From the IMG/VR virus record IMGVR_UViG_2579779077_000004: a DNA stretch of 9,892 nt, one strand, 5' to 3'. How positions within the stretch are numbered: position 1 is the first letter of the stretch; each line of letters starts with the position of its first letter. Both the position numbers and the translations under genes were made by a program. This document shows, piece after piece, positions 2 through 9,862 of this stretch. Below the pieces are notes generated by a model. That model saw nothing but the letters and a program-made list of their open reading frames with translations, searched no databases and was not told the DNA's origin. This DNA is from a virus. Lineage: Duplodnaviria; Heunggongvirae; Uroviricota; Caudoviricetes.

Positions 2-88
2 CATAACGTGCCCACCAGCAGGGAGAAAGCACGCGCCAATATTCAGAAGATGAAAAACATGATTAACGGATTCAGGGGCAAGAAATGA
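2..88 (+). CDS. Possible 3' end of an upstream gene running off the window edge (…VPTSREKARANIQKMKNMINGFRGKK*)
   Basis: Frame 2 is open from the window edge to TGA at 86-88, which overlaps the ATG at 85 in an ATGA arrangement. No start is visible and no family is recognised. Confidence 0.2.
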   Translation, partial: HNVPTSREKARANIQKMKNMINGFRGKK

Positions 89-1482
89 AAAGCGCACCGA
101 ACTTAAAAAAACAGCCTTACGACAAGATGACCGAAGTCATCATTTTTGCGGGTAGTGATGCGTGGGCACATGCGAAACAGTGGCAGGAACAGGACGGGCG
201 ACTGGCTGGCGATAATGTGCCTCCCATTGTGCTGGCTGATGATCAACTGGATGAACTGGCAGACCTGAGAATCATCGACGAGGGGCGCTATTGTGTCCGG
301 CTGTACAAGGCAGGCCACATCAGGCCATCAAATATTAATGCCATTGCGCACAAGCTGGCGGCGGCGGGCGTAACTGATGCGAATTATTACCCCGAAGGGA
401 TACACAGCCAGAAGCGGGAGAACTGGCGCGAATATCTGGAACGGGAGCTGGGGAAAAAGCCAGGGGAAGAACACCACCAGCGAAAAACCACGCTACCGAT
501 GAGCGTTGGATCTGCCGGATACGACACGCAATTAGATTACGTGGTAAAGGGGATTATTCCGGCATCGTCGCTATGCAGCATATACGGGGCAAGCGGTTCC
601 TATAAATCATTCCTTGCCGGATCGTTGGCGTGTCACGTTTCCACGGGCCGCCAGTGGGGAGGCCGCAGGGTGGCGCATGGCGCTGTTCTCTATGTGGTTG
701 GTGAAGGCGGTATCGGCGTTCCGCGTCGTGTAAAAGCCTGGGAGGTTGTGCACGGTGAGCAGGTGAAAAATCTGTATCTGGTAAACCGTCCCATATTTCC
801 GGCGGTCCCGCTTGATGTTGATGAAATGGTTATCGCTGCCCGTCAGGTGGAGCGGGAAACGGGTAAACCTGTACGCATGATTATTCTTGATACTCTGGCG
901 CGTTGCTTTGGTGGCAATGATGAAAATGATTCCCGTGATATGGGGGCGTTTATCCGTGGGTGTGACGAGCTTAAACGGCGCACAGGGGCCACGGTGCTGG
1001 TGGTTCACCATTCCGGCAAGGATGAGACGAAAGGCGCGCGTGGTTCCAGTGCATTTCGTGCTTCGCTGGATGCTGAATACCGGATACGCAGGGAGGACGC
1101 AGGAAGCGAAGCGCTGGTTATCTCATGCACCAAAATGAAGGACGCGGAGGAACTCAAAGAGGCTGCCTATGACTTACGCGTGGTGGAGCTGTTTACCGAC
1201 GCTGACGGGGAGTTAATCACGTCGCTGGTGGTGGTGGATAAGCCGCGTCCTCCCGTTGAACTGGAGCGCATCGAGGAGGCAGGCAACAAGACGGAAAACC
1301 ATACCGCACTATGGGGGTGCATCCGGTCACGCACACAGCACGGCGACAAGTGCACGATCCCGCTGTTACGTGATGACATGAAAAAACTGGGGTATGAAAT
1401 GAAAAACTTCCGGCGCTGGCTGTACAAGCTGGAAAAAGATGGGGTTATTCGTATCGATGGGGATGATGTAGCGCCGCTATAA
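85..1482 (+). CDS. Replication initiator / helicase-like protein: RecA-fold ATPase (AAA_25/RepA-DnaB-like) with an unassigned N-terminal domain and a probable C-terminal winged-helix DNA-binding domain
   Basis: 465-aa ORF with AGGGG about 8 nt upstream of the ATG. P-loop-like motif GASGSYKS, Walker-B-like hydrophobic stretch ending in D (VRMIILDTLAR), and the RecA/DnaB-like motif LVVHHSGKDETKG. The C-terminal 70 aa (…MKKLGYEMKNFRRWLYKLEKDGVIRIDG…) looks like a winged helix. An iteron array follows immediately downstream. Confidence 0.8.
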   Translation: MKSAPNLKKQPYDKMTEVIIFAGSDAWAHAKQWQEQDGRLAGDNVPPIVLADDQLDELADLRIIDEGRYCVRLYKAGHIRPSNINAIAHKLAAAGVTDANYYPEGIHSQKRENWREYLERELGKKPGEEHHQRKTTLPMSVGSAGYDTQLDYVVKGIIPASSLCSIYGASGSYKSFLAGSLACHVSTGRQWGGRRVAHGAVLYVVGEGGIGVPRRVKAWEVVHGEQVKNLYLVNRPIFPAVPLDVDEMVIAARQVERETGKPVRMIILDTLARCFGGNDENDSRDMGAFIRGCDELKRRTGATVLVVHHSGKDETKGARGSSAFRASLDAEYRIRREDAGSEALVISCTKMKDAEELKEAAYDLRVVELFTDADGELITSLVVVDKPRPPVELERIEEAGNKTENHTALWGCIRSRTQHGDKCTIPLLRDDMKKLGYEMKNFRRWLYKLEKDGVIRIDGDDVAPL

Positions 1483-1677
1483 AAGTGAGGAGCAAAAGCG
1501 AGGGGGGTAGAAAGAGGGCCAAAATTAGCCTGCTCTCCCTCACTTTTCGACCTGTATACATCCTCAAAAGTGAGGGGTAAAAAAATACTTATGAAACACA
1601 CACATAGAAAAACCAAAAATCCCAACTGCGACGAAGTGAGACGCTTGAAAAAGTGAGGCGAAAAAGTGAGAGGTTGC
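1482..1677. repeat. Iteron array, putative origin of replication
   Basis: Direct copies of AAAGTGAG(G/A) at 1482-1490, 1566-1576, 1649-1658 and 1661-1673; degenerate copies at 1494-1503 (AAAGCGAGG), 1511-1519 (AAAGAGGGC) and 1633-1641 (GAAGTGAGA); one inverted copy at 1537-1547 (CCCTCACTTTT). An AT-rich stretch sits between them at 1578-1620. The array lies directly 3' of the rep gene. Confidence 0.6.
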
Positions 1678-1682
1678 GAGAA

Positions 1683-1934
1683 ATGACCCAAAAACGCAGA
1701 GACAGAACAGAGCCGAAATATAAGGCGTTAGATATGGCTGAACTGGCTTTAAAGGTGGCAATCAGAACGATAGACCGCCACGCGGGGGAAGGATACGCGA
1801 AAGCACATCCCGAACTGATAAGCGCATTCATGACCACGACGGCGGCAAATTTTGCCACGCTGACAGAACGGGAGATTGCCGAAGCGGAACAGGTAACAAC
1901 AATCAACGTTAAAACCGGAGAGGTGGAATCATGA
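1683..1934 (+). CDS. Hypothetical small protein (83 aa)
   Basis: ATG at 1683 with GAGAGG 10-16 nt upstream. The ORF track gives an upstream in-frame start at 1653, but that lies inside the iterons with no RBS. The TGA stop overlaps the next ATG (ATGA at 1931-1934). No recognisable family. Confidence 0.45.
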   Translation: MTQKRRDRTEPKYKALDMAELALKVAIRTIDRHAGEGYAKAHPELISAFMTTTAANFATLTEREIAEAEQVTTINVKTGEVES

Positions 1935-2236
1935 GCGAACCAAAATTTGGTGAAAAATTTTACAAGCACAACGGACGGATCACGATTCTGCAAATAAGCG
2001 CAGCTACACCAGGCTGGTGGGTTGAAACAGACGAAGGATCCTCACCCGTGGCATCATGGGCGCTTTGTGTGCTTAGTTACCCTGACCGCGATGTGTATCA
2101 GGATATTCTGCCTGTGATATCCACTGACAAAGGCATGAAACCCGTAGACATCAAAAACATGGGGTTTCAGTGCGTAATGCTCACTGAAAAAATGATGGAA
2201 GAGATGAAAAAGAACAATGCCGGATCGCTTCACTGA
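1931..2236 (+). CDS. Hypothetical protein (101 aa)
   Basis: Strong RBS GAGAGGTGG 5-13 nt upstream of the ATG at 1931, which is translationally coupled to the preceding ORF. No recognisable family. Confidence 0.55.
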   Translation: MSEPKFGEKFYKHNGRITILQISAATPGWWVETDEGSSPVASWALCVLSYPDRDVYQDILPVISTDKGMKPVDIKNMGFQCVMLTEKMMEEMKKNNAGSLH

Positions 2237-2245
2237 GGTGGCAAT

Positions 2246-2656
2246 ATGACAGCACAAATTGCAGCTTACGGGCGGCTGGTGGACGACCCGCAGGTAAAAC
2301 AGAGCAGCAAGGGCACACCGATGACTCTGGCGCGTATGGCGGTATCGTTGCCATGCAGCCAGGCACATGACGGACAGGCGACGTTATGGTTATCGGTTAT
2401 CGCATTTGGCAAACAGGCCGATTTCCTGGCTAAACATCAAAAAGGCGATGTTGCCAGCGTATCCGGCACGATGCAGGTAAGCCAGTGGACCGGACAGAAC
2501 GGGGAAACGCGGCGGGGGTATCAGGTTATTGCAGACAGCGTAATCAGTGCCCGCGCGGCACGTCCAGGCGGGAACAGACGCAAAACCACAGGCACACAGG
2601 GTAATCAGCCACCAGCGGGAGGCGATGACCCTTACGGTGACGGTATTCCGTTCTGA
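2246..2656 (+). CDS. ssb: Single-stranded DNA-binding protein (short SSB, OB fold)
   Basis: RBS GAGGTGG upstream. The N-terminal stretch IAAYGRLVDDPQV resembles the SSB motif (…VGNLGQDPEV…), there is a conserved W…FGK…A core, a Gly/Pro/Gln-rich linker, and a C-terminal acidic tail ending DDPYGDGIPF (compare the canonical SSB end …DDDIPF). Confidence 0.75.
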   Translation: MTAQIAAYGRLVDDPQVKQSSKGTPMTLARMAVSLPCSQAHDGQATLWLSVIAFGKQADFLAKHQKGDVASVSGTMQVSQWTGQNGETRRGYQVIADSVISARAARPGGNRRKTTGTQGNQPPAGGDDPYGDGIPF

Positions 2657-2666
2657 GGGGGTGACG

Positions 2667-2939
2667 ATGGCACATGACCGCATAGCGGAGGAACTCGAGG
2701 CAAAAGGCTTTTACCGGAGGGCGGCGGCGCGATGGGGTGAAGTCATGCAACTGGTGGAGACAGACAAGGAACGGCATCAGGTTACGATGCGACGGCTGGA
2801 ATGTTCCAGGAAGGCACAGAGGCCACCGGAGCCGCCGGATAACTTCGGAGACCTGAGAAAGGCAGTCGATCGCACTTATGCTGAAATGGGTATGGATGGT
2901 GTAAGCGATGAAATATGGCGTAATTACACAGACAGCTAA
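2667..2939 (+). CDS. PerC-family transcriptional regulator-like protein (90 aa)
   Basis: ATG at 2667 with GAGGGGG 6-12 nt upstream. The ORF-track start at 2547 would overlap ssb with no RBS. The N-terminal motif AEELEAKGFYRRAAARWGEVM matches my recollection of the PerC/Pch signature; this is a family-level call only. Confidence 0.55.
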   Translation: MAHDRIAEELEAKGFYRRAAARWGEVMQLVETDKERHQVTMRRLECSRKAQRPPEPPDNFGDLRKAVDRTYAEMGMDGVSDEIWRNYTDS

Positions 2940-2944
2940 TCAAC

Positions 2945-2966
2945 AGCCGGAGCAATCCGGCTTTTT
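2945..2966 (+). terminator. Rho-independent terminator after the PerC-like gene
   Basis: Stem AGCCGGA (2945-2951), GCAA tetraloop, TCCGGCT (2956-2962), followed by a T-run (2962-2966, then TTATTTTTT). Confidence 0.55.
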
Positions 2967-2986
2967 GTTATTTTTTGTAAATTATT

Positions 2987-3033
2987 TGTTCGTGGTTGTT
3001 CCACGTTGTTCACTGAGCGGATCGGCATATTTT
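2987..3033 (+). promoter_or_regulatory. Candidate promoter/operator for the head operon: three phased TTGTTC repeats and a sigma70-like -35/-10
   Basis: TTGTTC at 2987-2992, 2997-3002 and 3006-3011, spaced about one helical turn apart. The last one (-35-like) is followed after 16 nt by TATTTT at 3028-3033 (-10-like). A 5-bp inverted repeat CGTGG/CCACG lies at 2991-3005. Confidence 0.3.
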
Positions 3034-3087
3034 ACCCGAACTGAATCATGATTATTCTCGCCTGTGGTGCCAGGACGCTGGGGCCAC

Positions 3088-3135
3088 TTTCCCGCCTGTT
3101 AATGTGCTCGCCAATATTCATTACCAGGCGGGAAA
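3088..3135. promoter_or_regulatory. Perfect 11-bp inverted repeat in the capsid-gene leader (operator or RNA stem-loop)
   Basis: TTTCCCGCCTG (3088-3098) and CAGGCGGGAAA (3125-3135) are exact reverse complements separated by 26 nt. They are nested inside a 9-bp long-range inverted repeat, CCAGGACGC (3070-3078) and GCGTCCTGG (3187-3195). Confidence 0.35.
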
Positions 3136-3226
3136 ACGATCGGTGCGATTACTGATTTCCTTATGAAAAACGGTTGAGTGTTTGCCGCGTCCTGGAGTTC
3201 CTTACTTAACCCCAGGACTTTTTTTT

Positions 3227-4384
3227 ATGCCGAGAATAATCGAATTACGCCAGCAGAAAACCGCCATTAAAAATCAGATGCGCGACATGCTGGAGAACGC
3301 TGAAAAAGAAAACCGCAGTCTTAACGATGCTGAGGGCGCAAAATTTGACGAATTACGCGCTAAAGCTGAATCCCTCGATAAAGACATTTCCCGCCTTGAA
3401 GCCATTGCAGACGAAGAGCGCAGCAAGCCAGGTAAAAGCAGTCAGACCACTGACCCCGCAGAACTACGAAACTACATTCTGACGGGTGAAACCCGCGCAT
3501 TAAGTACAGGCGTTCCCGCTGATGGTGGTTATACCGTTATCCCCGAACTGAACACCGAAATCATGCGAATGCTGGCGGATGAATCCACCATGCGCCGCAT
3601 CTGTACCGTGAAGAAAATCAGCAGCAACGAGTTTAAGCAGCTTGTTTCCGCTGGCGGTGCGACCGTTAACCACGGTGAAGAGGGTAAGGCACGCGAACAG
3701 ACCAGCACCCCGCAGATTAACGAGGTGAGCATTAAGCTGTATCCGGTCTATGCGTACCCGCGCACCACACAGGAAATCGTGGATTTTTCCGATGTGGACA
3801 TCCTTTCATGGCTGACGGGTGAGATTGGCGACACCTTCACGGAAACCGAAGAAAGCGATCTGGTTGTGGGCGACGGTGACAAAAAAGCAAAAGGTTTTTT
3901 ATCCGTACCCCGTGCAGAGAAGAACGACAAAGAGCGTGATTTTGGTACGTTGCAGGTAATTAAACCTTCCGAATCTCTGGCGTGGACATCTGCGGACCCG
4001 CTGATCGACCTGAAATTTGCATTACGTAAAAAATACCGCAAAAACGCGGTCTGGGTGGTTAACTCCACGACGGCGGCAAAACTTCAGAAGGTGAAGAACG
4101 CGAACGGTGATTACATCTGGCGCGACCGTTTACAGGCGGGTGATCCTGATACGTTGCTGGGCCTTCCGGTCGAATATCTGGAGTTTATGCCTGATAACGT
4201 TATTGCCCTGGGTGACTTCAAACGCGGTTACTACATTGTTGATCACGAAACAGGTGTTCGCACCAGACCGGACAACCTCACAGAGCCGGGCTTCATCAAA
4301 ATTTTCACGCAGAAATATTTAGGCGGTGGCGTGGTGGATTCGAACGCGATCAAGATTCTGGAACTGCCACAGGACGACGATTAA
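3227..4384 (+). CDS. Major capsid protein, HK97 fold, with N-terminal coiled-coil delta (scaffolding) domain
   Basis: 385 aa from the ATG at 3227 (the ORF track begins at an upstream TTG at 3182). The N-terminus has a charged coiled-coil heptad pattern (IIELRQQKTAIKNQMRDMLENAEKENRSL…DELRAKAESLDKDISRLEAI), followed by a mature domain with HK97-MCP-like motifs (GGYTVIPEL…, …LLGLPVEY…). Confidence 0.9.
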   Translation: MPRIIELRQQKTAIKNQMRDMLENAEKENRSLNDAEGAKFDELRAKAESLDKDISRLEAIADEERSKPGKSSQTTDPAELRNYILTGETRALSTGVPADGGYTVIPELNTEIMRMLADESTMRRICTVKKISSNEFKQLVSAGGATVNHGEEGKAREQTSTPQINEVSIKLYPVYAYPRTTQEIVDFSDVDILSWLTGEIGDTFTETEESDLVVGDGDKKAKGFLSVPRAEKNDKERDFGTLQVIKPSESLAWTSADPLIDLKFALRKKYRKNAVWVVNSTTAAKLQKVKNANGDYIWRDRLQAGDPDTLLGLPVEYLEFMPDNVIALGDFKRGYYIVDHETGVRTRPDNLTEPGFIKIFTQKYLGGGVVDSNAIKILELPQDDD

Positions 4385-4997: not shown

Positions 4998-6209
4998 ATG
5001 TGGCCTTTCAGAAGAAAAAAAGAGCAGCGCAGCATGACGCTTGATGAATTTATGGCGCTGGCTGGCACATCGAACACGGGGGCGGGTGAGTACGTATCAT
5101 CGGGGACAGCGGAATCACTGCCCGCCGTCATGAACGCCGTGACGGTCATTTCTGAGGCGGTGGCTACCATGCCGTGTTACCTGTACCTGGTACGCAATGA
5201 GAAGGGGAAGGAGGCCCGCGAGTGGCTTGATTCTCATCCGGTCGATCACATCCTCAACGAGCGCCCGAACGCGTGGCAGACTCCCTACCAGTTTAAGCGA
5301 ATGATGATCCGCCACTGCCTGTTAAACGGTAATGCTTATGCGGTGATTCAGTGGGGGCGTGATGGTTTTCCGGTGGCTTTACATCCTTACCCGCCGCAGT
5401 CGGTGAACGTGGAGCAGACAGGCGAACACAACTGGCGCTACTGCATCACTGACGCTTACACCGGAAACACCCGCAACTATTTACCGTGGGAGGTACTTCA
5501 CCTTCGTTACTCCACGGATGACGGCTTTATGGGGCGCTCACCTGTAACCATCTGCCGCGAATCGCTGGGGCTTGGGCTGGCCCAACAACGCCACGGCGCG
5601 AGCGTGATGCGTGATGGCATGATGGCGGCAGGGGTTATCACGTCAGGCGAATGGCTGGACGGCGTGAAGGGCAAACAGGCATTAGCCGCACTGGAACGCT
5701 ACAAAGGGGCCAGAAACGCCGGAAAAACGCCCATCCTTGAAGGGGGGATGAGCTATCAGCAGCTGGGCATGAGTAATCAGGATGCTGAATGGCTGGCCTC
5801 CCGTCGCTTCACCATTGAAGACATCGCCCGAATGTTCAACGTCTCGCCGATTTTTCTGCAGGAATACAGCAACAGCACCTACAGCAATTTCAGCGAGGCA
5901 AGCCGCGCATTTCTCACCATGACGATGCGCCCGTGGCTGGCGAACTTTGAGCAGCAGATAAAAAACGCCTTGCTGGTGGTCTCGCCTGTACCTGGTATCC
6001 GGTATCAGGTGGAGTTTGACAGCGCGGACCTGTTACGGGCCACACCTGGCGAACGCTTTGCCACCTATGAGCGCGGCATCAAATCCGGCGTAATGTGTCC
6101 GAACGAAGCCCGCGAACGTGAAGGACTGTCACCGCGTGATGGTGGTGATGAGTTCAGCCAGGCATGGAAACAGGAAGTAAAAATCAGCGAGGGAGAAAAA
6201 CCGGAATGA
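4998..6209 (+). CDS. Portal protein, HK97 family
   Basis: 403-aa ORF with GCGGGGG RBS upstream of the ATG at 4998. Size and sequence character fit HK97-type portals. It begins 2 nt after the protease stop. Confidence 0.88.
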   Translation: MWPFRRKKEQRSMTLDEFMALAGTSNTGAGEYVSSGTAESLPAVMNAVTVISEAVATMPCYLYLVRNEKGKEAREWLDSHPVDHILNERPNAWQTPYQFKRMMIRHCLLNGNAYAVIQWGRDGFPVALHPYPPQSVNVEQTGEHNWRYCITDAYTGNTRNYLPWEVLHLRYSTDDGFMGRSPVTICRESLGLGLAQQRHGASVMRDGMMAAGVITSGEWLDGVKGKQALAALERYKGARNAGKTPILEGGMSYQQLGMSNQDAEWLASRRFTIEDIARMFNVSPIFLQEYSNSTYSNFSEASRAFLTMTMRPWLANFEQQIKNALLVVSPVPGIRYQVEFDSADLLRATPGERFATYERGIKSGVMCPNEAREREGLSPRDGGDEFSQAWKQEVKISEGEKPE

Positions 6210-7277: not shown

Positions 7278-7446
7278 GCGGGAACAAAACCGCCTTATCC
7301 GTGGACTTATAAGGCAGCGTGACACATGGAAGACACAGGAAACAGGGCATAAAGATAAAGCGTCAGGACGCGCAGAACGCATCACAGCGAAGCGATTAAC
7401 CGACCGTGACCGCGAGGTTATGGAATGTTTCCGCAATCGCTGGTGA
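7261..7446 (+). CDS. Possible small basic protein (about 61 aa)
   Basis: ATG at 7261 in the +1 frame relative to HNH, overlapping its last 17 nt (MTLMNEREQNRLIRGLIRQRD…NRW). RBS is weak and no family is recognised. It occupies the HNH-terS spacer. Confidence 0.22.
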   Translation: MTLMNEREQNRLIRGLIRQRDTWKTQETGHKDKASGRAERITAKRLTDRDREVMECFRNRW

Positions 7447-7565
7447 TGCTGTATGACGGGGTGGGGGGCGTTTTCAGGACAAACCCGACCCCGCCGGGCA
7501 CCGAACGCCTCCTCAAATTTTTATGCACGGGAATTTTTTGAAAAATAATCTGGCGAAAAATAAGC
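7447..7565. other. Candidate cos / packaging-initiation region upstream of terS
   Basis: Non-coding spacer with a GC-rich element (GACGGGGTGGGGGGCG at 7455-7470, then CCCGACCCCGCCGGG) followed by an AT-rich stretch (AAATTTTTATGCACGGGAATTTTTTGAAAAATAATC). The assignment rests on position only. Confidence 0.3.
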
Positions 7566-7922: not shown

Positions 7923-9567
7923 GTACGCAGAAGACGTAAAAACGGGCAAAATTCCGGCCTGTAAACGGCTGAAACAGGCCGTTAAACGGTACTTTTCGGA
8001 CCTTAAAAACCCCCTTTATACGTTCGATCGTGAGGTCGTGGAGCGGTTTATTGCCTTTTCCAGGGTGTGCCCGCACGTAAAAGGGCCGATGCGTGGCAGA
8101 CCCATTGAGCTGGAGCCGTGGCAGCAGTTCGCCTTTGCGTGCATCCTCGGCTTTAAGGTTAAGGCCACCGGACGGCGCAAATACACGAGCGCATTTATCG
8201 AAGTGCCGCGCAAAAATGCGAAATCCACGACCGCCGCGATTCTGGCTAACTGGTTTCTGATTATGGAGAACGGGCAGCAGGATATTTACACCGCAGCAGT
8301 GAGCCGTGACCAGGCGCGGATCGTTTTTGATGATGCGCGTCAGATGTGCCTTTTATCCCGACCGTTACGCAGGCGGGTGAATATTCAGGCCCACAAGGTG
8401 ATGCACCCGAAAAGCAACAGCCTGTTAAAGCCGCTGGCAGCAAAAGCGGCAACCATCGAGGGCACAAACCCAAGCCTTTCCATCGTGGACGAATACCACC
8501 TACACCCCGATAACGGCGTTTATTCCGCGCTTGAGCTGGGGATGGGCGCACGTCCCGAAGGGCTGTTATTTGCCATTACCACATCGGGCAGTAACGTCGT
8601 TTCAGCCTGTAAACAGCACTATGATTATTGCTGCCAGATCCTGGACGGCGAAGAGGTCAACGATTCAATTTTTGTGCTGATTTACGAGCTGGACGACGAA
8701 AACGAGGTTGATGATCCGGGGATGTGGATAAAGGCTAACCCTAACATCGATGTTTCCGTGGATCGTGAAAAACTGGCCTCAACCATCCAGAAAGCGCGGG
8801 GTATTCCGTCGCAATGGGTGGAGATGATGACAAAGCGATTTAATATCTGGTGCCAGGGGGCTACCCCGTGGATGGGTAACGGCGCATGGGTTGAGTGTGC
8901 CGGAACGTTCATGGAGGAAGATTTACACGGGCAGGAGTGTTACGCGGGGCTGGACTTATCATCAACCAGCGATATTTCCAGCGTGTGCTATGCCTTTCCG
9001 GTCGGTAAAACCATTATGCTGATTTCCCGTCATTATCTGCCGGAGTTCCAGCTACAGAACCCCGCCAATAAAAACCGCGCTGTCTATCGCCAGTGGGCTA
9101 AAGCGGGCTGGATACGCACAACGCCAGGTGACTGCATTGATTACGACCGGATCAGAGATGACATCATGCAGGATGCGGAGAAATTTAATATCAGGCTGGT
9201 GGGCTTTGATACGTGGAACGCCACGCATCTCAGGACGCAATTACAGGGGGCTGGTTTTGAGGTGGAGCCGTTCCCGCAAACCTACCTCAGATTCAGTCCG
9301 GCGGCGAAATCGTTCGAAGTTTTTGTTAACCGCAGGGTGATTGTGCATCGTGGCGATCCGGTGTTGTCCTGGTCGATGAGTAACGTCGTGATGCAGAGTG
9401 ACGCGAACGCCAATATCAAGCCGAACAAGAAAAAATCACCGAACAAGATAGACCCGAGCGTAGCGGCGCTGATGGCGTTTGGTACATTCCAGGCAGAGCA
9501 TGAGGATTTTGCTTTTGATATAAGCGACAGCCACCGCCAGAAACTGGAAGAATTTAGCGGGGTGTAA
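7906..9567 (+). CDS. terL: Terminase large subunit (ATPase plus nuclease)
   Basis: 553 aa. N-terminus WNKYAEDVKTGKIPACKRLKQAVKRYFSDLKN is typical of Terminase_1-type TerL. The apparent start is TTG at 7906 with GAGGA 5 nt upstream, overlapping terS by 17 nt in the +1 frame; there is no in-frame ATG or GTG between the upstream stop and this TTG. Confidence 0.9.
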   Translation: MTAWNKYAEDVKTGKIPACKRLKQAVKRYFSDLKNPLYTFDREVVERFIAFSRVCPHVKGPMRGRPIELEPWQQFAFACILGFKVKATGRRKYTSAFIEVPRKNAKSTTAAILANWFLIMENGQQDIYTAAVSRDQARIVFDDARQMCLLSRPLRRRVNIQAHKVMHPKSNSLLKPLAAKAATIEGTNPSLSIVDEYHLHPDNGVYSALELGMGARPEGLLFAITTSGSNVVSACKQHYDYCCQILDGEEVNDSIFVLIYELDDENEVDDPGMWIKANPNIDVSVDREKLASTIQKARGIPSQWVEMMTKRFNIWCQGATPWMGNGAWVECAGTFMEEDLHGQECYAGLDLSSTSDISSVCYAFPVGKTIMLISRHYLPEFQLQNPANKNRAVYRQWAKAGWIRTTPGDCIDYDRIRDDIMQDAEKFNIRLVGFDTWNATHLRTQLQGAGFEVEPFPQTYLRFSPAAKSFEVFVNRRVIVHRGDPVLSWSMSNVVMQSDANANIKPNKKKSPNKIDPSVAALMAFGTFQAEHEDFAFDISDSHRQKLEEFSGV

Positions 9568-9580
9568 TGAGGTCAGCAGC

Positions 9581-9862
9581 ATGACAGAAGCCGAAATACT
9601 GCGATTAATCCGCCGCGTCTCTGGAATCAGCCAGCAGGCTGACGAACAGACCACGCAGCCGGACAGCGTGACAGCCGAAAATTATGCGCGTGTTGTTGCT
9701 GAGGTGATGCGCCGTGATGGTATCCAGCTTAATGATGCGGATATGCGCGACATACGGATCCGCGTTCTGGAAATGCTGGCCTACAATCGCCGCGTTGAAC
9801 TGTATCGGGAGAAGGAGAAAATCACGTACCACTGGAAGAAGCCGGAGCGGTTACGGCGGTAA
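9581..9862 (+). CDS. Hypothetical protein (93 aa) downstream of terL
   Basis: ATG at 9581 with GAGG about 10 nt upstream. Charged, probably alpha-helical protein (MTEAEILRLIRRVSG…); no family recognised. Confidence 0.5.
   Translation: MTEAEILRLIRRVSGISQQADEQTTQPDSVTAENYARVVAEVMRRDGIQLNDADMRDIRIRVLEMLAYNRRVELYREKEKITYHWKKPERLRR

Follow-up and report, generated by a model that had tools for sequence, protein, structure and literature searches.

A 90-amino-acid gene of the PerC family lies directly upstream of the capsid operon of a phage satellite, and our analysis indicates that it is a neighbor of that operon and probably not its switch. In our preferred reading, to which we give a probability of about 0.72, the gene encodes a PchE-type PerC protein on a capsid-forming PICI (cf-PICI), stands at the end of the SSB unit, and would act in trans on the host as an accessory function. 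The capsid operon would be under a control region of its own, insulated by a terminator (T1) and served by an AlpA-type activator. The check puts the analyzed DNA in a known satellite class and removes a regulatory model that was attractive but unsupported. The perC gene itself is ordinary, and the architecture of the capsid leader is the more interesting by-product.

RESULTS

A capsid-forming satellite

We call the whole stretch of DNA that was analyzed, 9,892 nucleotides, the window. Judged from its genes, the window is the right two-thirds of a cf-PICI of the EcCIEDL933/O-island 51 (OI-51)/Sp7 type, and cf-PICIs are an already known class of satellite. All genes of the window are on the plus strand. 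The features as far as the start of the packaging operon, except those of the capsid leader, are as follows.

85 to 1482, plus strand: RepA-type helicase (profile search)
1483 to 1682, no strand: intergenic region with six AAGTGAG iterons, the presumed satellite origin of replication
1683 to 1934, plus strand: ECs1586-like ORF, 83 amino acids (phrog_1231)
1931 to 2236, plus strand: ORF, 101 amino acids (phrog_27268)
2246 to 2656, plus strand: SSB (Pfam SSB family)
2655 to 2661, plus strand: Shine-Dalgarno sequence of perC, GAGGGGG, read from the sequence and overlapping the SSB stop codon
2667 to 2939, plus strand: perC/pchE-like coding sequence, 90 amino acids, ATG at 2667, stop codon at 2937 to 2939
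3227 to 4384, plus strand: HK97-type major capsid gene, first of the packaging operon (Pfam, NCBIfam)

The genes between 1683 and 2656 are tightly packed, overlapping or lying within about 10 nt of one another. After the capsid gene, the packaging operon continues with genes for a protease, portal, head completion protein, connector, HNH, TerS and TerL, and it ends at 9567. Profile searches found no tail or lysis genes in the window. The window thus has the gene content of a cf-PICI: HK97-type capsid, protease, portal, connectors, HNH, TerS and TerL, with neither tail nor lysis genes. The DNA is thus from a phage-related element of E. coli, one that is a satellite and not a prophage.

The best E. 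coli match, here called L001, is 98.1% identical over the whole window and supplies what lies to its left. The L001 island is about 14 kb (4031 to 18252) and sits between roxA and phoQ, the site of OI-51/Sp7, which at that site encodes PchE (PMC3378721). At its left end are a tyrosine integrase and AlpA (PF05930, E = 5.5e-17), co-oriented; the window itself begins inside the island, at the helicase. Parts of the window occur in 1,809 of 5,426 complete E. coli genomes, and in 270 the match extends to at least 80% of the window. EcCIEDL933 is the prototype cf-PICI and requires alpA for induction, and it is the only one for which induction by a helper phage and the formation of its own small capsids have been shown experimentally (bioRxiv 10.1101/2022.09.08.507074). 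Overexpression of alpA alone has been used to produce EcCIEDL933 capsids (bioRxiv 10.1101/2025.02.11.637232).

An orthologue of pchE

From its sequence, the ORF at 2667 to 2939 is a functional gene of the PerC family and orthologous to pchE of E. coli O157, which belongs to group 3 Pch. The earlier note had called the product a PerC-like regulator on the strength of an N-terminal motif and had proposed an HMM search, which proved clearly significant. The protein, which begins MAHDRIAEELEAKGFYRRAAARWGEVM, aligns with the Pfam PerC model (PF06069) over its whole length (residues 1 to 90 on profile positions 1 to 90 of 90, E = 2.3e-44) with 150 bits against a cut-off of 22.6, which places it in the family, and it matches phrog_994 (E = 1.3e-45). 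The quoted motif, AEELEAKGFYRRAAARWGEVM, is residues 7 to 27 and was rightly recognized as PerC/Pch-like: it is the most conserved stretch of the family in a comparison of 38 diverse homologues. Six of its positions are invariant there (L10, E11, G14, R17, R18 and A19), and every invariant or nearly invariant column is kept in the window protein (D4, A7, L10, E11, G14, R17, R18, A19, R22, W23, C46, M74 and G75). The conserved core D..A..LE..G(L/F)(Y/W)RRA..RW, with the C and MG downstream of it, is likewise all present.

The start of the gene was chosen between two candidates. We prefer the 90-amino-acid form because a strong Shine-Dalgarno sequence, GAGGGGG, lies just 5' of the ATG at 2667. 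A 130-amino-acid ORF with a GTG start (2547 to 2939) was rejected, as it overlaps SSB and as both the Shine-Dalgarno sequence and the Pfam match suit the shorter form.

Identity to PchE of strain Sakai (ECs_1588) is 94% over all 90 residues, and this identity together with the OI-51-type synteny assigns the protein to group 3 Pch. Moreover, tblastn found it 100% identical to the product of an L001 coding sequence, WP_000929753.1, that NCBI names "PerC family transcriptional regulator," and PICI-encoded PerC homologues were noted earlier (PMC6092414, PMC11773190). Therefore, the gene is already known: NCBI annotates it, there is published work on pchE in O157, and PerC genes of PICIs are in print. 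The family is small, as only 235 clusters of relatives were found at E values up to 0.001 among 1.84 billion representative proteins. The median dN/dS for 34 distinct perC alleles is 0.29, and the gene is therefore kept by selection. An AlphaFold2 model of the 90-amino-acid protein (pLDDT 85) is all-helical and has a TPR-like fold with no recognizable DNA-binding domain, the fold match being weak evidence for a protein so small and helical. The sequences of solved structures gave chance matches only against the PerC profile (E at least 0.5).

The control region of the capsid operon

Lambda Q, P4 Delta and staphylococcal RinA are encoded just upstream of the genes that they control. PerC would resemble them if it were a late activator of the satellite, produced last in the early unit and turning on or counter-silencing a promoter in the leader at 2940 to 3226. 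The position of perC suits such a cascade, for it is indeed the last gene of the early, or replication, module, directly after SSB at 2246 to 2656. The junction that follows it has these features.

2945 to 2972, plus strand: intrinsic terminator T1, closing the SSB-perC unit; stem AGCCGGA/TCCGGCT (2945 to 2962) and T-run (terminator scan)
2973 to 2989, plus strand: conserved motif TTTTGTAAATTATTTGT with core TGTAAAT (2976 to 2982), found once in the window; core invariant in an alignment of 49 leaders
2986 to 3012, plus strand: three TTGTTC boxes with 10-bp phasing; one match in the window versus 0.01 expected
3031 to 3058, plus strand: candidate weak sigma-70 promoter; -35 TTTACC (3031 to 3036), 16-nt spacer, -10 TATTCT (3053 to 3058)
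3064 to 3087, plus strand: hairpin A, GUGGU.CCAG-GACG-CUGG.GCCAC, with a conserved GACG loop; in RNAalifold, 99% of cells paired and 5 of 9 pairs compensatory
3088 to 3135, plus strand: hairpin B, 17-nt arms and 14-nt loop; inverted repeat I1 (94% complementary), with covariation between lineages in 8 of 9 pairs
3189 to 3226, plus strand: hairpin GUCCUGG...CCAGGAC and U8, abutting the capsid ATG; holds the only Shine-Dalgarno-like sequence, AGGA (3214 to 3217)

A terminator between perC and the head operon had been predicted, and the terminator scan recovered it as the stem and T-run of T1. In O157 strain PA20, 5' RACE mapped a single polycistronic mRNA across ECs1586, SSB and pchE, with its 5' end 10 nt before ECs1586 (PMC7369912). 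The promoter sequence mapped in PA20 is not conserved in the window when Sakai and the window are compared. In our proposal, perC would likewise be the last cistron of an ECs1586-like/SSB/perC unit of the replication module, cotranscribed with SSB and ending at T1.

The leader is as rich in repeats as the earlier note described, with direct and inverted repeats in the 287 nt before the capsid ATG at 3227, and it folds far better than shuffled sequence (z = -6.4). We aligned 49 non-redundant leaders, no two of which share more than 93% identity. In most cf-PICI loci, those that lack PerC included, the TGTAAAT core precedes the capsid ATG by 204 to 256 nt, and a 12-mer of the motif is absent from satellites that have PerC only (L061 to L082). 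After the motif come direct repeats that are specific to each lineage, here the three TTGTTC boxes. The candidate promoter was inferred from nearly invariant positions in the 49 leaders and would start transcription of the capsid operon near 3064. It scores 8 of 12, below the threshold of a sigma-70 consensus scan of positions 1400 to 3400 that found no site at 9 of 12 or better. So weak a promoter is probably activator dependent, a point in favor of reading PerC as a late activator.

Downstream of the predicted start, the three leader helices covary. Among 23 diverse sequences, 95.3% of cells pair, versus 33 to 48% when partners are slid by one to three columns. Compensatory changes occur in 15 of 24 pairs, and none of 500 shuffles reached the observed values. 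Other lineages have a GGUU...AACC helix at the place of the hairpin next to the start codon. An Rfam scan of the whole window returned nothing relevant and no match for the leader.

Terminators lie just upstream of the TGTAAAT motif in several distant cf-PICI lineages, and antisense cargo precedes the leader in many. Thus, the capsid operon most likely has its own promoter, as judged from these arrangements, and is not read through from the early genes. We note that the control region described here is not mentioned in the two cf-PICI preprints that we searched (bioRxiv 10.1101/2022.09.08.507074, 10.1101/2025.02.11.637232).

The TTGTTC boxes recur in L001, the full-length relative. With a pattern of TTGTT-N5-TTGTT-N5-TTGTT and at most one mismatch, L001 has 7 matches versus 0.03 expected, at the following sites (L001 coordinates).

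3942: about 70 to 90 nt upstream of int
5308 to 5352: five inverted boxes in the int-alpA interval
6141: some 50 nt before the ORF that follows alpA
10988: capsid leader
18426: right end of the island

In L001, the copy in the leader and that between int and alpA are 96% complementary over 25 nt. Sakai has both of these copies and also paired boxes upstream of int. In distant cf-PICIs, a search for recurrence of the leader repeats near alpA or int (31 leader types with more than 6 kb upstream) gave best scores equal to those of shuffles. Recurrence of the boxes elsewhere in the island is therefore shown for the E. coli type only and remains a lead. Their distribution is as expected for the sites of an island DNA-binding protein that would act at the attachment sites and at each operon. 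It makes AlpA, or some other DNA-binding protein of the island, a better candidate than PerC for a direct activator of the capsid operon.

AlpA is related to P4 Vis and the excisionase family, and both its own promoter and PICI genes further downstream are activated by it (PMC6092414). It is the obvious candidate because of this kinship, because of its activation of itself and of genes downstream, and because EcCIEDL933 needs it for induction and makes capsids when it is supplied. Alternatively, the arm-binding domain of the integrase could bind the boxes.

PerC and the capsid operon in related elements

If PerC were a dedicated late activator, it should be found wherever members of the element family have the head operon with its control region. 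We compared about 240 related loci. cf-PICI loci were gathered by their capsid protein, 58 from IMG/VR, 80 from metagenomes and 80 further ones with 10-kb flanks. Every open frame of the collected loci was searched with the PerC HMM, and the counts are for loci whose capsid gene has 2.5 kb or more of sequence before it. The E. coli type has capsids at least 98% identical, and the distant loci have capsids 63 to 75% identical.

E. coli-type cf-PICIs, n = 48: PerC upstream in 47, phrog_1957 gene upstream in 22
Distant cf-PICIs, n = 65: PerC upstream in 2, phrog_1957 gene upstream in 57

The adjacency in 47 of the 48 E. coli-type loci is what a late activator would predict, but 63 of the 65 distant loci have no PerC-family ORF in the 2.5 to 4 kb upstream of the capsid gene that the scan covered. 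Most of those loci retain the TGTAAAT motif, and the non-redundant set retains the leader hairpins. In 50 non-redundant lineages, the region upstream of the capsid gene holds PerC in 3 and phrog_1957, the ECs_1589 family of unknown function, in 37. The space before the leader is often filled by variable cargo genes on the opposite strand, and one locus (L100) has a gene of the ProQ/FinO family directly after SSB, in the slot of PerC.

PerC also occurs apart from capsid genes. Scanning a single genome for each species turned up 22 PerC loci in other Enterobacterales, among them Escherichia albertii, E. ruysiae, Enterobacter, Kluyvera, Pantoea, Erwinia, Lonsdalea and Shimwellia; these came from an alignment of 12 PerC sequences via a single peptide pattern, and so the survey is biased toward closer relatives. 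Capsid, portal and terminase genes follow PerC in 0 of the 22. In many of them PerC comes after a satellite-type primase (Toprim/DUF927 or D5) and SSB, sometimes with ProQ. The genes downstream of PerC in the non-cf satellites mostly have no Pfam match. Moreover, box arrays are present in PerC-less cf-PICIs (L100 to L104) and are absent from all 22 PerC-only loci, and so the leader boxes are independent of PerC. Finally, tblastn of PerC against 50,697 phage records gave two weak matches only, and so sequenced phages essentially lack this PerC clade.

Within the E. coli type, perC alleles are only 61 to 100% identical, even as they stand beside a leader that is essentially identical and a capsid gene that is 98 to 100% identical. 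Homology breaks at T1. In Sakai, T1 is duplicated around an inserted cassette, the 74-amino-acid gene ECs_1589, and therefore the site is a cassette junction. Three non-cf satellite loci have no plus-strand terminator after PerC, and T1 is therefore part of the cf junction. The rarity of PerC in distant cf-PICIs, the PerC loci that lack capsid genes and the break at T1 together argue that the replication module, and not the capsid module, is the partner that PerC has kept. PerC does not co-occur with the head operon and control region across the element family. As far as gene order can tell, its place beside the capsid genes indicates a junction between modules, a variable accessory slot, and is not a sign that it switches those genes.

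Two further points oppose a late activator. Searches with Pfam, PHROG and NCBIfam profiles found no homology of PerC to known late activators. Expression of pchE is low and steady without induction, and SOS-inducing antibiotics lower it; a gene transcribed in uninduced lysogens that drops upon SOS induction behaves in the opposite way to a late activator (PMC7369912, PMC6265319). The idea in the earlier note that PerC activates the head genes of the element thus finds no backing in the comparison, and we consider it unlikely.

Published functions of PchE and its relatives

The earlier note also offered PerC as a host-directed regulator, and that suggestion fits what is published on PchE, which is 94% identical. 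Overexpression of PchE lowers csgD/curli, biofilm and adhesion and raises flhDC, fliC and motility, and PchE mostly represses adhesin genes. These phenotypes come mostly from overexpression from a plasmid, and deletion of pchE has a slight curli phenotype (PMC6265319, PMC7369912).

PchE has little or no effect on LEE (PMC6265319, PMC7369912, PMC11773190), and the same is true of the group 2 and group 3 Pch proteins in general (PMC6265319, PMC11773190). Activation of the LEE1/ler promoter is the activity behind the name of the PerC family, and group 3 has little or none of it; as these two papers relate it, citing Porter 2005 and Iyoda 2004, group 3 is reported as not activating LEE1 (PMC6265319, PMC11773190). 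PerC of the window would most likely act in trans on host promoters. Its route would likely be the remodeling of nucleoid-protein or activator complexes, by analogy with PchA, which lifts H-NS silencing at AT-rich DNA; Pch proteins have no homology to known DNA-binding proteins (PMC4764244).

DISCUSSION

How a cf-PICI might control its capsid genes can now be sketched. The capsid operon would be run by its own region, in which the TGTAAAT motif and the phased TTGTTC boxes are joined by a weak promoter and a structured 5' leader, and T1 would insulate it from the early unit. An island DNA-binding protein, probably AlpA, would be the direct activator. The control region offers direct handles on how cf-PICIs time the production of capsids.

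PerC may nonetheless have acquired a part in this scheme in one lineage. Because PerC adjoins the capsid operon so regularly in the E. coli type, a lineage-specific role stays conceivable. There, PerC might have been recruited as an auxiliary counter-silencer of the T-rich capsid control region, atop AlpA. The start of the leader is T-rich (GC 0.41 to 0.47), the kind of DNA at which PchA relieves H-NS, and this speaks for any reading in which PerC acts on the leader. We regard such recruitment as quite unlikely. Were it true, one small protein would tune the capsids of the satellite and rewire the curli and flagella of the host, linking the state of the satellite to the behavior of the cell.

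Alternatively, the main targets of PerC might be the helper phage or competing mobile elements, with effects on helper transcription or superinfection. Satellites commonly have interference or helper-manipulating genes beside the packaging module, the flanks of cf-PICI packaging operons are described as variable, with immune systems expected among their genes (bioRxiv 10.1101/2025.02.11.637232), antisense cargo genes that vary frequently fill the slot, and the family is present in satellites of species without LEE. No PerC homologue, however, is known to take part in phage interference, and among cloned genes of EcCICFT073 only c1503 (Rpp) inhibits lambda (PMC6739421). The effects of PchE on host genes, moreover, are documented, and we find a mainly helper-directed role very unlikely.

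An equally improbable reading is that PerC is an anti-activator of the ANR type, which would bind and inhibit an AraC-family activator or H-NS. It draws on a match to NCBIfam ANR_neg_reg (NF033650) over residues 6 to 52 (E = 0.0019), on the helical, TPR-like model, on the mostly repressive effect of PchE on adhesin genes and on the PICI homologue EcCIMP1_025, which represses LEE1 and which its authors proposed to be ANR-like (PMC11773190), but the match, at 18 bits, is far under the cut-off of 32 and does not make the protein an ANR member when the PerC model gives 150, PchE also strongly induces flagellar genes, and no AraC-family partner is encoded nearby.

The preferred reading, an accessory PchE-type PerC at the end of the SSB unit and a capsid operon with its own insulated control region, can be set against known systems. 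Lambda Q, P2 Ogr/P4 Delta and staphylococcal RinA/LtrC resemble PerC in position only, as the last early gene before the structural genes; there is no similarity of sequence or fold, and the linkage of PerC to structural genes is not kept across the element family. PerC of the EPEC plasmid and PchA/B/C of EHEC (group 1, activators of LEE1/ler) are likewise small members of PF06069 borne on mobile elements, but the plasmid-borne genes of the family are only about 33 to 43% identical to the window protein. EcCIMP1_025 is a PerC-family gene on an E. coli PICI, the classical EcCIMP1, and its likeness to genes of EcCIEDL933 and EcCICFT073 has been noted. It is about 40% identical by its authors' figure, represses LEE1 in Citrobacter rodentium and is carried by a satellite without capsid genes (PMC11773190).

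The closest systems are cf-PICIs themselves. EcCIEDL933 has the same packaging module in the same order, and its int and alpA are matched at the left end of the close relative of the window. Its early module differs as a mosaic, with another replication gene and origin, and the accessory slot before the packaging operon differs as well. OI-51 of E. coli O157:H7 (CP-933C, Sp7), the home of PchE, has the order ECs1586-like ORF, SSB, pchE and capsid just as the window does. For replication, the window has a RepA-type helicase and AAGTGAG iterons, whereas Sakai has a primase and ATAACCCGCA iterons. The window alone has the additional 101-amino-acid ORF, and Sakai alone has the cassette with the 74-amino-acid ECs_1589 (phrog_1957) and a second copy of the terminator between pchE and the capsid gene. 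The terminator and the leader are common to both, and the relatives of the window occupy the same roxA/phoQ site.

The capsid-operon leader

A structured leader precedes the capsid operon and is kept among cf-PICIs with capsid genes of 63-100% identity (alignments A6 and A7). Its parts, and the TTGTTC boxes that recur elsewhere in L001, a full-length E. coli relative of the window, are as follows.

Window 2973-3226: leader containing the TGTAAAT motif, a putative weak promoter and three helices
Window 2986-3012: TTGTTC boxes with 10-bp phasing, in the capsid leader
L001 3942, 5308-5352, 6141, 10988 and 18426: TTGTTC-box sites

The three helices covary strongly in A6 and A7, with compensatory changes in 15 of 24 pairs and 95% of cells paired, and none of 500 shuffles reached the leader's pairing and covariation values. 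Rfam holds no family for the leader, and the element is not mentioned in two cf-PICI preprints (bioRxiv 10.1101/2022.09.08.507074 and 10.1101/2025.02.11.637232). Window 3050-3060 is a perfect 11-nt complement of 3231-3241, such that the leader could pair with capsid codons 2-5. The leader arm of this complement overlaps the candidate -10 element, and in the minimum-free-energy fold of the window sequence the pairing is predicted to enclose the whole leader.

L001 carries seven TTGTTC-box sites versus 0.03 expected, and the boxes of the leader recur at the island's right end, upstream of int, in the int-alpA interval and ahead of the first ORF that follows alpA. The arrays are candidate binding sites of AlpA or integrase. 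The boxes are independent of PerC, the pchE-type regulator.

Genes upstream of the leader or after SSB

Genes upstream of the capsid leader in cf-PICIs, and a gene that follows SSB in some satellites, are as follows.

L002 9170-9394 (Sakai ECs_1589), L043 3013-3273, L050 3494-3769: phrog_1957 gene
L043, L097, L109-L111, L114, L119, L122 and others: opposite-strand genes located 200-1,500 nt 5' of the capsid gene
L100 2446-2988, L061 5462-5998, L062 5462-6004: ProQ/FinO-family gene

The commonest gene upstream of the leader is the phrog_1957 gene, small (74-91 aa) and with no assigned function: 37 of 50 non-redundant cf-PICIs have it, as do 57 of the 65 distant loci. Many distant cf-PICIs also carry variable opposite-strand genes between the early module and the leader. 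The recurrent clusters among these genes are of 157-414 aa, mostly without a Pfam match, and a role as accessory or defence cargo is probable. In some satellites, the post-SSB position is held by a gene for an RNA chaperone of the ProQ/FinO family (Pfam E about 1e-24). This gene replaces PerC in the cf-PICI L100, whereas in the E. albertii and E. ruysiae loci PerC follows directly after it.

Packaging module, island end and origin

A 288-nt gap, which may be a cos region, separates the HNH and TerS genes (window 7278-7565). An ORF of 93 aa without a Pfam match lies 3' of TerL (window 9581-9862), and a pair of 66-nt direct repeats with 89% identity is found close to the right end of the island in L001 (17857-18054).

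Window 1483-1682: six AAGTGAG iterons, 3' of the RepA-type helicase gene

The iteron region is presumably the satellite's origin of replication. The sequence of the promoter mapped in O157 for the ECs1586-SSB-pchE mRNA is not conserved in the window. The Sakai locus differs in having other iterons (ATAACCCGCA) and another replication gene, whereas the window combines AAGTGAG iterons with a RepA-type helicase. Sakai also has the phrog_1957 gene ECs_1589, flanked by duplicated copies of T1, the terminator that closes the SSB-perC unit, whereas the window lacks this gene.
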